Positions 53,523-59,583 of a stretch of DNA of 64,000 bases are shown here, in pieces. The stretch lies in the NCBI RefSeq assembly GCF_045037415.1, contig NZ_CP173438.1. One strand, 5' to 3'. Positions within the stretch are counted from its first letter, which is position 1; every line of letters starts with the position of its first letter. The position numbers were made by a program, and so were the translations under genes. The stretch comes from Escherichia coli. Lineage in GTDB: Bacteria; Pseudomonadota; Gammaproteobacteria; Enterobacterales; Enterobacteriaceae. The notes under the pieces were generated by a model. That model was not told the DNA's origin. It searched no databases and worked only from the letters and a program-made list of their open reading frames with translations.

Positions 53523-53839
53523 AAATTCTCCTGTAAAACGCGGAATATACCGTACCTCTTAGCGGGGAAAAACAGGGTTATGCGGCAACGTCGAAATTAA
53601 ATGTGATCTGCCACGCCTTTTATCACAAAAGTGTCTCCGGAAGTACGATGCAAATTTGCCTGGCAAAATAAGGATAATCAACAAATTACGAATCGCTGCA
53701 CACCTGTGCTGATGACTACTACGCAGAGAAACAAATGTGCAAGAGAAAGCGCTATTTCCCCCCATGCAAAGAGTGAAAAATCGCTTTGAAAGGCCATCAT
53801 GATGGGGTTATATCAGATCAAGCGGTGAGAAAGCGTATT

Positions 53840-53853
53840 TGCACAAATGTGCA
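53840..53853. promoter_or_regulatory. 14-bp perfect palindrome, candidate SorC operator
   Basis: TGCACAAATGTGCA immediately upstream of the sorC RBS; half-site ACAAATGTGCA repeated at 53731-53741. Confidence 0.4.
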
Positions 53854-53869
53854 GAACCAGGAGGCGGCA

Positions 53870-54817
53870 ATGGAAAACAGTGACGATATCCGTTTGATTG
53901 TGAAGATTGCCCAACTCTATTACGAACAGGATATGACGCAGGCGCAAATTGCGCGCGAACTGGGTATTTACCGCACCACCATCAGCCGCTTGCTTAAACG
54001 AGGCCGCGATCAGGGAATTGTCACCATCGCCATCAACTATGACTACAACGAAAATCTCTGGCTGGAGCAGCAAGTGAAGCAAAAGTTTGGCCTGAAAGAC
54101 GTTGTGGTGGTGTCAGGAAATGATGAGGATGAAGATACTCAACTGGCGATGATGGGGTTACACGGCGCGCAACTGCTGGATCGCTTGCTGGAACCTGGTG
54201 ATATTGTTGGTTTTTCCTGGGGTCGCGCGGTGAGCGCACTGGTTGAAAACTTGCCGCAGGCGGGGCAATCGCGGCAGTTAATTTGCGTGCCGATTATTGG
54301 CGGCCCGTCCGGTAAACTCGAAAGCCGCTATCACGTAAACACATTAACCTACAGCGCGGCAGCGAAGCTGAAAGGGGAATCGCATCTCGCGGATTTTCCG
54401 GCTCTGCTGGATAACCCATTAATTCGTAATGGGATCATGCAGTCTCAGCACTTTAAAACCATCTCTGCCTACTGGGATAATCTGGATGTCGCCCTGGTGG
54501 GAATTGGCTCACCGGCCATTCGCGACGGCGCTAACTGGCATGCGTTTTATGGTGGTGAAGAGAGTGACGACCTGAATGCCCGCCAGGTTGCTGGCGATAT
54601 TTGCTCGCGCTTTTTTGATATTCACGGCGCAATGGTTGAAACGAATATGAGCGAAAAAACACTCTCTATCGAAATGAATAAATTAAAGCAGGCACGGTAT
54701 TCCATTGGCATTGCCATGAGCGAAGAAAAATACAGCGGAATTGTTGGTGCACTGCGTGGAAAATATATTAATTGTCTGGTAACGAATAGCAGCACAGCTG
54801 AACTATTACTGAAATAA
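53870..54817 (+). CDS. sorC: SorC/DeoR-family sugar-binding transcriptional regulator
   Basis: 315 aa from MENSDDIRLIVKIAQLYYEQDMTQAQIAREL... (HTH) with sugar-binding domain. Confidence 0.75.
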   Translation: MENSDDIRLIVKIAQLYYEQDMTQAQIARELGIYRTTISRLLKRGRDQGIVTIAINYDYNENLWLEQQVKQKFGLKDVVVVSGNDEDEDTQLAMMGLHGAQLLDRLLEPGDIVGFSWGRAVSALVENLPQAGQSRQLICVPIIGGPSGKLESRYHVNTLTYSAAAKLKGESHLADFPALLDNPLIRNGIMQSQHFKTISAYWDNLDVALVGIGSPAIRDGANWHAFYGGEESDDLNARQVAGDICSRFFDIHGAMVETNMSEKTLSIEMNKLKQARYSIGIAMSEEKYSGIVGALRGKYINCLVTNSSTAELLLK

Positions 54818-54886
54818 AAATCTTCCCGATGTTTACCGTAATAAAAATTACGGCGGGTCCTTATTATCTAAAATCAGGAGTCTGTT

Positions 54887-56669: not shown

Positions 56670-57467
56670 ATGGAAATAAGTACTCTACAAATCATTGCTA
56701 TATTTCTTTTTTCCTGTATTGCCGGAATGGGCAGCGTGCTGGATGAATTTCAGACTCATCGTCCGTTAATTGCCTGTACGGTGATTGGTTTAATTCTCGG
56801 TGATTTAAAAACCGGAATTATGCTCGGTGGTACGCTGGAATTGATAGCTCTCGGCTGGATGAACGTCGGCGCGGCGCAATCTCCGGATTCTGCGCTCGCC
56901 AGCATAATCTCCGCCATTCTGGTTATCGTTGGTCAGCAAAGCATCGCCACCGGAATCGCCATCGCGTTGCCTGTGGCTGCGGCAGGCCAGGTGCTGACGG
57001 TGTTTGCCCGTACCATCACCGTAGTGTTCCAGCACGCGGCGGATAAAGCAGCGGAAGAAGCACGGTTTCGCACTCTCGATATTCTGCATGTCTCCGCGCT
57101 TGGCGTGCAGGCACTGCGCGTTGCTATTCCGGCACTGATTGTCTCGCTGTTCGTCAGCGCTGATATGGTGAGCAATATGCTGAGCGCCATTCCCGAATTT
57201 GTGACCCGTGGACTGCAGATTGCTGGCGGTTTTATCGTGGTGGTCGGTTACGCCATGGTGCTTCGCATGATGGGCGTGAAATATTTGATGCCTTTCTTTT
57301 TCCTCGGTTTCCTCGCAGGTGGCTACCTCGATCTCAGTCTGCTGGCGTTCGGTGGCGTCGGCGTGATCATGGCCCTGCTCTACATCCAGTTAAATCCACA
57401 GTGGCGTAAAGCTGAACCACATCCCCAGACCACCACTATCACCGCCCTTGACCAACTTGATGATTAA
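56670..57467 (+). CDS. sorA: PTS mannose/sorbose-family EIIC
   Basis: 265 aa polytopic. Confidence 0.75.
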   Translation: MEISTLQIIAIFLFSCIAGMGSVLDEFQTHRPLIACTVIGLILGDLKTGIMLGGTLELIALGWMNVGAAQSPDSALASIISAILVIVGQQSIATGIAIALPVAAAGQVLTVFARTITVVFQHAADKAAEEARFRTLDILHVSALGVQALRVAIPALIVSLFVSADMVSNMLSAIPEFVTRGLQIAGGFIVVVGYAMVLRMMGVKYLMPFFFLGFLAGGYLDLSLLAFGGVGVIMALLYIQLNPQWRKAEPHPQTTTITALDQLDD

Positions 57468-57477
57468 CGGAGCCATC

Positions 57478-58302
57478 ATGGAACAGAGAAAAATTACACG
57501 CAGCGATCTGGTGAGCATGTTTCTGCGCTCCAACCTGCAACAGGCATCCTTTAACTTTGAACGTATTCACGGGCTGGGTTTTTGCTACGACATGATCCCC
57601 GCCATCAAACGACTTTACCCATTAAAAGAGGATCAGGTTGCGGCGCTCAGGCGACACCTGGTGTTCTTCAATACCACGCCAGCCGTATGTGGCCCGGTCA
57701 TCGGCGTCACTGCCGCCATGGAAGAGGCGCGAGCCAACGGCGCGGAAATTGATGACGGTACCATTAACGGCATCAAAGTCGGTCTGATGGGACCATTGGC
57801 AGGAGTTGGCGATCCACTGGTCTGGGGAACGCTGCGCCCGATTACCGCCGCGCTCGGCGCATCTCTGGCACTTTCGGGCAACATTCTCGGCCCCCTGCTG
57901 TTCTTCTTTATTTTCAACGTGGTGCGCCTGGCGATGAAGTGGTATGGCCTACAGCTCGGCTTTCGCAAAGGGGTGAATATCGTCAGCGATATGGGCGGTA
58001 ATTTGCTGCAAAAACTCACCGAAGGCGCGTCGATTCTCGGGCTGTTTGTGATGGGCGTGCTGGTGACCAAATGGACGTCAATCAACGTACCGTTGGTGGT
58101 TTCACAAACGCCTGCCGCCGATGGTGCCACCGTCACCATAACCGTGCAGAACATCCTCGACCAACTTTGCCCTGGTTTGCTGGCGCTCGGTCTGACGCTG
58201 CTGATGGTTCGTCTGCTCAACAAAAAAATTAACCCGGTATGGCTGATTTTCGCCCTGTTTGGTTTAGGGATTATCGGTAATGCGCTGGGCTTCCTGTCCT
58301 GA
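57478..58302 (+). CDS. sorM: PTS mannose/sorbose-family EIID
   Basis: 274 aa from MEQRKITRSDL...; alternative upstream ATG at 57448 would overlap sorA. Confidence 0.75.
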   Translation: MEQRKITRSDLVSMFLRSNLQQASFNFERIHGLGFCYDMIPAIKRLYPLKEDQVAALRRHLVFFNTTPAVCGPVIGVTAAMEEARANGAEIDDGTINGIKVGLMGPLAGVGDPLVWGTLRPITAALGASLALSGNILGPLLFFFIFNVVRLAMKWYGLQLGFRKGVNIVSDMGGNLLQKLTEGASILGLFVMGVLVTKWTSINVPLVVSQTPAADGATVTITVQNILDQLCPGLLALGLTLLMVRLLNKKINPVWLIFALFGLGIIGNALGFLS

Positions 58303-58353
58303 TTCTTCGCCCCGGCGCAACCGTCGGGGCCATCGTTCAACACGAGGTGGTTT

Positions 58354-59583
58354 ATGAAAACAACAGCTCTGCGTCTTTATGGTAAACGTGATTTACGCCT
58401 GGAAACCTTTGACCTTCCTGAAATGCAGGAGGATGAAATCCTCGCAACGGTGGTCACTGACAGCCTGTGCCTCTCTTCCTGGAAAGAGGCCAATCTGGGT
58501 GAAAATCATAAAAAAGTACCCGACGATGTGGCGACCAATCCCATCATCATCGGCCACGAATTTTGCGGCGATATTCTGGCCGTGGGTAAAAAGTGGCAGC
58601 ACAAATTCCAGCCGGGTCAGCGTTATGTGATTCAGGCCAACCTGCAACTCCCCGACCGCCCGGATTGCCCCGGCTACTCCTTCCCGTGGGTAGGCGGCGA
58701 AGCGACGCATGTGGTTATTCCCAACGAGGTCATGGAACAAGATTGCCTGCTGGCATACGACGGCGAAACCTATTTTGAAGGCTCGCTGGTTGAACCGCTT
58801 TCCTGCGTGATTGGCGCGTTCAACGCCAACTATCATCTTCAGGAAGGTAGTTATAACCACACGATGGGGATTCGCCCGCAAGGGCGCACGCTGATCCTCG
58901 GCGGCACCGGACCAATGGGACTGTTGGCGATTGATTATGCGCTACATGGACCCGTTAACCCTTCGCTGCTCGTCATTACCGATACCGACAACGACAAATT
59001 GAGTTATGCGCGCAAGCACTATCCATCAGAACCGCAAACACTGATTCATTATCTCAATGCCGCCGATGCAGCATTTGATACGTTAATGGCACTGAGTGGC
59101 GGTCACGGCTTCGATGATATTTTCGTCTTTGTGCCTAATGAAGGACTGGTGACTCTCGCCTCTTCCTTGCTGGCGACAGATGGTTGTCTGAATTTCTTCG
59201 CCGGACCGCAGGATAAGCACTTCAGCGCGCCAATTAATTTCTACGATGTGCATTATGCATTTACCCACTACGTGGGCACGTCAGGCGGCAATACCGACGA
59301 CATGCGCGCAGCGGTCAAATTAATTGAAGAGAAAAAAGTGCAGGCCGCAAAAGTGGTAACACATATTCTTGGGCTGAATGCCGCGGGCGAAACCACGCTT
59401 GAATTGCCTGCCGTCGGCGGCGGCAAAAAGCTGGTGTATACCGGGAAATACCTGCCGCTGACGTCACTCACGCAGATTCAGGATCAAGCACTGGCGGCGA
59501 TTCTGGCGCGTCATCAGGGGATCTGGTCCGGTGAGGCGGAGCAATACCTGCTCGCCCATGCAGAGGCAATTTCCCATGATTAA
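58354..59583 (+). CDS. sorE: zinc-dependent alcohol dehydrogenase family, sorbose-1-phosphate reductase-like
   Basis: 409 aa MDR-type dehydrogenase at operon end. Confidence 0.7.
   Translation: MKTTALRLYGKRDLRLETFDLPEMQEDEILATVVTDSLCLSSWKEANLGENHKKVPDDVATNPIIIGHEFCGDILAVGKKWQHKFQPGQRYVIQANLQLPDRPDCPGYSFPWVGGEATHVVIPNEVMEQDCLLAYDGETYFEGSLVEPLSCVIGAFNANYHLQEGSYNHTMGIRPQGRTLILGGTGPMGLLAIDYALHGPVNPSLLVITDTDNDKLSYARKHYPSEPQTLIHYLNAADAAFDTLMALSGGHGFDDIFVFVPNEGLVTLASSLLATDGCLNFFAGPQDKHFSAPINFYDVHYAFTHYVGTSGGNTDDMRAAVKLIEEKKVQAAKVVTHILGLNAAGETTLELPAVGGGKKLVYTGKYLPLTSLTQIQDQALAAILARHQGIWSGEAEQYLLAHAEAISHD

Follow-up and report, generated by a model that had tools for sequence, protein, structure and literature searches.

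The chromosomal sorCDFBAME operon for L-sorbose use in Escherichia coli occupies what is very probably its ancestral site between rluF and pepE, from which the K-12 lineage would have deleted it

We examined the interval 53523-59583 of a 64,000-nucleotide stretch of Escherichia coli DNA (contig NZ_CP173438.1 of assembly GCF_045037415.1; the whole stretch is hereafter called the window), which a sequence-only reading, made without database searches, had described as a sorbose-type phosphoenolpyruvate-dependent phosphotransferase system (PTS) operon inserted between rluF and pepE. It is almost certain in our judgement that the interval holds the known chromosomal sorCDFBAME operon for L-sorbose use, standing at an ancestral rluF-pepE site near metH, and that the lineage leading to K-12 deleted it. 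The identification is secure, and the finding already known, because the DNA is nearly identical to a fragment cloned from strain CFT073 and because knock-out and knock-in data exist for sequence type (ST) 131.

Seven intact open reading frames (ORFs), all on the + strand, fill positions 53870-59583; the spacing from one gene to the next is -1 to 69 bp, and a clear Shine-Dalgarno sequence precedes five of them. The first gene, sorC (53870-54817, 315 residues), encodes a SorC-family regulator with an N-terminal helix-turn-helix and a C-terminal sugar-binding domain (PF04198, Sugar-bind, 7e-80) that matches 2W48 over its full length. It is followed by sorD (54887-55693, 268 residues), for a D-glucitol-6-phosphate dehydrogenase of the short-chain dehydrogenase/reductase family (NF004817, 501 bits against a cut-off of 304). 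Then come genes for all four mannose-family PTS components, each exceeding the cut-off of its curated model: sorF for EIIA (55703-56110, 135 residues; TIGR00824, 145.6 bits against 98), sorB for EIIB (56110-56604, 164 residues; TIGR00854, 223 bits), sorA for EIIC (56670-57467, 265 residues; TIGR00822, 422 bits against 340) and sorM for EIID (57478-58302, 274 residues; TIGR00828, 471 bits against 293), the last with the same start codon as in RefSeq. The final gene, sorE (58354-59583, 409 residues), encodes a zinc-type medium-chain dehydrogenase with ADH_N and ADH_zinc_N domains, for which RefSeq gives the name sorE and the product L-sorbose 1-phosphate reductase. On the left the operon is flanked by rluF (52650-53522, - strand; NF007784, 606 bits), divergent from sorC, and on the right by pepE (59965-60654, + strand; NF003642, 357 bits) followed by yjbB; the interval examined starts at the first base past the rluF start codon and ends at the last base of the sorE stop codon. 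The gene families and their order, checked through ORFs and profile matches, are those that the sequence-only reading had given, and its placement of an L-sorbose locus near metH agrees with the gene content, with the position of metH (from 63416, 3.8 kb beyond the operon) and with published work on near-identical operons (PMC2831201, PMC12817954). An identical genome has the gene order sorE-pepE-yjbB-(1 kb)-metH-iclR, which puts the operon at its expected map position near metH and iclR.

The residues and motifs on which the encoded proteins should depend are intact. SorF has a phosphorylatable His9 within FCAHGKLA, and SorB has His14 within DDRLIHGQ, aligned with the same residue of 1NRZ; SorD retains TGGASGIG and YAATK, and SorE retains Cys39, GHEFCG and GTGPMG as cofactor and zinc motifs. 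The chemistry of the pathway is established for the sor systems of Klebsiella and E. coli, and from near-identity we infer that it applies to this locus. Phosphoryl groups would pass from phosphoenolpyruvate through EI and HPr to His9 of SorF (IIA), to His14 of SorB (IIB) and on to L-sorbose, which would be phosphorylated while crossing the SorA/SorM (IIC/IID) membrane complex to yield L-sorbose-1-phosphate. SorE would reduce this to D-glucitol-6-phosphate, which SorD would oxidise to D-fructose-6-phosphate for entry into glycolysis. The product of the first gene, SorC, would repress the operon without sorbose and activate it with sorbose, the behaviour attributed to SorC by Woehrl et al. (1990) as quoted in a citing paper; its probable targets are the four conserved GCACAAAnGTGC palindromes of the 347-bp leader, upstream of which is a putative CRP-like site.

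Many complete E. coli genomes, at least one of which bears the label O25b:H4-ST131, match the window at 100% DNA identity over a 6.6-kb region including the operon. The primers with which the operon was cloned from strain CFT073 (PMC2831201) map to 53523 and 59613 of the window, and the CFT073 fragment aligns with the window without gaps at 99.03% DNA identity (59 substitutions in 6091 bp). The seven proteins differ at six amino acids in all, SorA and SorB being identical and the other five differing at one or two each. The CFT073 operon (c4981-c4987), a verified L-sorbose operon with the same flanks and the same deletion of a downstream gene, sdhL, differs from that of the window only in alleles, and the cloned fragment alone enabled E. 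coli DH5alpha to grow on L-sorbose (PMC2831201). In a 2025 multi-omics, knock-out and knock-in study of ST131 and ST648, the seven sor genes were the most strongly L-sorbose-induced genes of an ST131 isolate, deletion of sorE abolished L-sorbose utilisation, and insertion of the operon into an ST10 strain conferred it (PMC12817954).

These data also bear on whether the operon might be a decaying, phenotypically silent copy, to which we give next to no credence. The 3' end of the locus has decayed, leaving a relic of sdhL, and sor DNA has been reported in sorbose-negative Shigella (PMC2831201). Yet none of the seven ORFs is truncated, and their active-site motifs are intact; many complete genomes, including at least one labelled ST131, have identical copies, and the ST131 isolates tested in the literature were sorbose-positive (PMC12817954). 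CFT073 likewise lacks sdhL (its sorE-pepE spacer is 381 bp), and its seven-gene fragment was sufficient for growth (PMC2831201).

The sorCDFBAME operon of K. pneumoniae has the same seven genes in the same order as the window. That operon was reportedly characterised by Sprenger, Lengeler, Wehmeier and Woehrl between 1984 and 1994. K. pneumoniae is absent from the loci of our peptide-pattern scan, and direct comparison with it consisted of the SorC and SorB sequences from PDB together with a published table: SorC matches the K. pneumoniae protein (PDB 2W48) at 86.3% identity along all of its 315 residues, and SorB matches IIB-Sor (PDB 1NRZ) at 86.9%, a high similarity that fits the kinship with Klebsiella sor genes proposed in the sequence-only reading. 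For the five remaining Sor proteins, identity to their counterparts in the sampled species of the K. oxytoca group is 77-96%. The Klebsiella species examined have the same rluF ... pepE-yjbB neighbourhood as the window; those sampled keep sdhL intact, in contrast to the 112-bp relic present here. A more distant relative is the ManXYZ mannose PTS of E. coli (the prototype of TC 4.A.6), which has the same IIA/IIB/IIC/IID four-domain architecture: SorB matches IIB-Man (1VSQ) at 2e-49, and SorA and SorM lie above the cut-offs of the mannose-type subfamily models. IIA and IIB are fused in ManX, whereas in the Sor system they are separate polypeptides, and the genes are linked to those for SorE and SorD and controlled by SorC.

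The rluF-pepE spacer is 6442 bp in the window compared to 211 bp in K-12, a spacer that the sequence-only reading had correctly described as short. In a base-by-base comparison with K-12 AG100, homology stops at 53557 and restarts at about 59874; K-12-type "empty" sites have about 85 bp of different sequence in place of the segment 53558-59873, which extends about 290 bp past the end point (59583) that the earlier reading had given to the operon. As a statement of location, "inserted between rluF and pepE" stands; as a statement of evolutionary polarity it does not, the K-12 state being best read as a loss. With a coverage of at least 80% counted as positive, 2865 of the 5426 complete E. coli genomes have the operon; it is missing from 2560 of 5425 with matching flanks, and every sampled sor-negative genome has the same 370-bp flank match and the K-12-type empty site. 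Apart from phylogroups A (9.6%) and B1 (12.1%), each phylogroup has the operon in >86% of its genomes (PMC12817954), which points to loss by deletion in the lineage of most phylogroup A and B1 strains.

Synteny was surveyed with a SorE scan across one genome per bacterial species. The arrangement yjbD-rluF/sorCDFBAME/.../pepE-yjbB is conserved in over 25 species, which belong to six or more genera including Escherichia. Among them are E. whittamii, E. albertii and cryptic Escherichia, three Pseudocitrobacter, at least eight Citrobacter, five Klebsiella, Raoultella and Enterobacter-like genomes. No pepE was detected in Cedecea or in two related genomes, where the operon is likewise flanked by rluF and yjbB. 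The mean identities of sor and flank proteins are correlated (r = 0.67, n = 24). Between the window, which is B2-type, and O157:H7 strain Xuzhou21, DNA identity is 94.4-98.4% for the sor genes and 96.5-98.9% for the flanking genes. The most divergent gene is sorF, at 94.4% against the O157:H7 copy where its neighbours have 96-98%, and its protein is 60-93% identical across genera; this divergence agrees with the four sorF clusters reported in PMC12817954.

It is highly unlikely, against this distribution, that this lineage acquired the operon horizontally, by insertion of an islet into the promoter region between rluF and pepE, as might be supposed from its absence from K-12 and from the 2560 flank-matching genomes, and from its patchy presence across pathotypes (PMC2831201). 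The outgroups, in which the site of an acquired island is expected to be empty, carry the operon at the same site and in the same orientation, both elsewhere in Escherichia and in five or more further genera; the sor genes diverge much as their flanks do within E. coli and across genera; and the phylogroup distribution indicates loss in A and B1. The G+C content of the segment (0.512) equals that of its surroundings (0.514 for the window) and is not atypical as in a genomic island. No integrase or transposase gene is found among the ORFs of the segment, a tRNA search at the segment gave nothing, and there are no flanking direct repeats, the longest word shared by the junctions being 6 bp. Because of the synteny across genera, the flank-like composition and divergence, the missing mobility genes, tRNA and repeats, and the phylogroup pattern, we read the K-12 state as a loss; the comparison indicates an operon that is ancestral at the rluF-pepE site and that the ancestors of K-12 lost by deletion.

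Several points weigh against the reading of this interval as an ancestral, working L-sorbose operon. SorE reached no curated NCBIfam equivalog in the model search, and the models for the PTS subunits say only "mannose/fructose/sorbose", so that the substrate is not fixed by the models alone. An ST131 mutant deleted for sorAM still used sorbose (PMC12817954), from which it follows that the sor PTS is not the sole route of entry and that other PTSs can import the sugar. Function in the source strain is extrapolated from identity to strains that were tested. A consensus promoter scan reported nothing in the sorC leader, where the promoter, CRP site and SorC operators described below are all predicted. 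Finally, the K-12 empty site is not a clean excision, since about 40-48 bp of it (TATTTCCATTGGCTTGAATTCGTTACCTGCTCAAATCACTTT...) match no sor-positive locus examined.

Hidden Markov model families do not resolve the substrate, ST131 without sorAM still takes up sorbose through other PTSs, and the Klebsiella sorbose EII also transports D-fructose; these points could be taken to mean that this is a mannose-family PTS with another true substrate (D-fructose, or another ketose or hexose), its action on sorbose being incidental. We regard this as exceedingly unlikely. A fragment 99% identical to the window gives DH5alpha growth on L-sorbose by itself (PMC2831201); the seven genes are those most induced by sorbose in ST131, where sorE deletion blocks utilisation (PMC12817954); and the SorE/SorD pair is specific to the route from sorbose-1-phosphate through glucitol-6-phosphate to fructose-6-phosphate. 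As to the sequence that fills the K-12 site (2159-2243 of the K-12 locus), its first ~35 nt are homologous to rluF-adjacent sequence of Citrobacter and Klebsiella, more so than to the E. coli sor-positive allele, and its last ~12 nt are homologous to the allele of E. coli IMT16316. The filler was considered as leftover sor DNA, which was rejected on account of the ~40-48 bp that match nothing; a simple excision between 6-bp ATGTGA repeats was also rejected, as it does not reproduce the K-12 junction.

The 347-bp intergenic region between rluF and sorC (53523-53869, read on the + strand) was aligned with its counterparts in a set of 21 sequences from about 15 genera, taking in loci that do not adjoin rluF; discrete invariant blocks stand out amid freely varying sequence. 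One block is a candidate CRP site at 53601-53622 (+ strand), in which the left half AAATGTGATCT (53601-11) equals one half of the CRP consensus and the right half is weak; its TGTGATC is invariant in 21 of 21 sequences. Four 12-bp GCACAAAnGTGC palindromes form further conserved blocks and are candidate SorC operators: TCACAAAAGTGT at 53623-53634, GCACACCTGTGC at 53698-53709, AAACAAATGTGC at 53729-53740, with a nearly invariant core CAAATGTGCAA, and GCACAAATGTGC at 53841-53852, 18 bp upstream of the sorC ATG. The fourth is a perfect match, the sole one with zero mismatches in the 64-kb window, and is nearly invariant in the alignment (one change in one sequence). With two mismatches allowed, the motif is not enriched in the whole window (21 matches compared to 32 expected); its significance lies not in the count but in the clustering of four sites within 230 bp, far above the average density of the window, at a conserved spacing of 75, 31 and 112 bp, and in their conservation across genera. 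SorC-family repressors bind as tetramers to paired half-operators, as shown for the relatives DeoR and CggR (PMC11229326), which makes the four palindromes reasonable candidates for the SorC operator. A candidate promoter, TTGAAA-17 nt-TATATC (53786-53814, + strand), is suggested by sequence and conservation and overlaps the conserved block GGGTTATATCAGATCA (53805-20). A further conserved block at 53673-53678 reads GATAAT or CAGAAT, and GATAAT is an alternative candidate for the -10 element.

Just 3' of sorE lies the remnant of an eighth gene, which the sequence-only reading had overlooked. Alignments with E. whittamii, cryptic Escherichia and E. coli IMT16316 identify positions 59576-59687 (112 bp, + strand) as a relic of sdhL, a shikimate-dehydrogenase-like gene: 58 bp of the 5' end, with a CAA to TAA stop at codon 7, are joined to 54 bp of the 3' end across a 701-bp internal deletion (junction between 59633 and 59634). 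Almost all the syntenic loci have an intact sdhL encoding 270 residues, whose start lies within the sorE stop codon (ATGATTAA), an overlap suggestive of translational coupling; within E. coli the intact gene is kept by 177 of the 5426 complete genomes, IMT16316 being an example. CFT073 and an O157:H7 strain have the same short sorE-pepE spacer as the window, and the deletion is thus old and shared. The ST131/ST648 study saw sdhL, with induction by sorbose, in ST648 alone and not in ST131, and treats it as an ST648-specific extra (PMC12817954); in our comparison it is instead ancestral, ST131 keeping the remnant of its deletion.

SdhL scores 442 bits with NF009202, "shikimate 5-dehydrogenase" (cut-off 306), and its best solved relative is the SdhL protein of H. 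influenzae, HI0607 (1NPY, 2e-112). The SMPFK and NTD motifs, which presumably hold the catalytic Lys and Asp, are conserved in the alignment of the two. To our knowledge the physiological substrate of SdhL of the HI0607/1NPY type has never been established. The Tatumella KFR, a member of the shikimate-dehydrogenase family, reduces 5-keto-D-fructose, an oxidised form common to D-fructose and L-sorbose (PMC7954740; PDB 7COK), and this suggests a ketose-related role for SdhL. We put forward, as a tentative proposal that may well be wrong, that the ancestral enterobacterial sor operon had eight genes and that SdhL acts on the sorbose-pathway ketose to which its linkage points, e.g., in the interconversion of 5-keto-D-fructose with L-sorbose or D-fructose. 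The conserved coupling of sdhL to sorE is the only mildly novel thread of this locus. The sdhL-pepE interval of Citrobacter and Klebsiella ranged from ~0.9 kb to >9 kb in seven loci, and in some such intervals (three loci) paired small adjacent ORFs are found; the sdhL-pepE junction looks like a recurrent site of cargo insertion.

Beyond the sdhL relic, the sorE-pepE spacer holds a G+C-rich hairpin, AGCGCC-TTAAGG-GGCGCT, at 59697-59714, found by a terminator scan and an inverted-repeat search and flanked by a perfect 11-bp inverted repeat (ACAATGTGCAC / GTGCACATTGT) at 59666-76 and 59730-40. It is the only strong terminator-like hairpin that the scan found after sorE. Only the - strand carries its T-run, yet there is no gene on that strand upstream of the hairpin; termination, an antisense block and stabilisation of mRNA are possible roles. 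Inverted repeats further mark two repetitive extragenic palindromic (REP) elements in inverted orientation within 59744-59842 (59744-59777 and 59813-59842); the E. whittamii copy reads GCCGGATGCGGCGTGAACGCCTTATCCGGCCTAC, which we take to be the REP consensus. Small ORFs in the spacer were dismissed, as they overlie the REP elements and the sdhL relic. In an Rfam scan covering 50000-64000, the sole match was a lysine riboswitch upstream of lysC (50487-50683; RF00168, 99.5 bits), which is ordinary and expected; the operon and its immediate surroundings gave none.

Farther downstream, between yjbB and metH, is a segment of ~1 kb (62376-63415) of low G+C content (0.35-0.40), which is present in 1132 of the 5426 complete E. 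coli genomes. It contains two hypothetical ORFs on the - strand: one at 62546-62995 (149 residues), hydrophobic in appearance and with no Pfam match, and another at 63038-63356, frameshifted here and intact in CFT073. In the otherwise identical genome of Ecol_AZ153 (NZ_CP019000.1) an IS1B transposase is annotated inside this segment. In EC65 (NZ_CM128671.1) a 6601-bp sor query finds its match in two pieces spread over 7378 bp, a sign of extra DNA in an otherwise identical genome.

Work on Klebsiella, CFT073 and ST131 has covered the cloning, sequencing, partial structure determination and functional testing of the sor operon, a textbook case of an accessory catabolic locus, and its presence here therefore adds nothing new. 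For specialists on the locus the comparison offers refinements: at this site K-12 shows a loss and not the window a gain, a remnant of sdhL remains from what may have been an eight-gene ancestral form, and the leader holds conserved candidate operators. The practical value lies in a correct annotation, from which the source strain would very probably be sorbose-positive, and sorbose use has been linked to the competitive fitness of high-risk lineages (PMC12817954).

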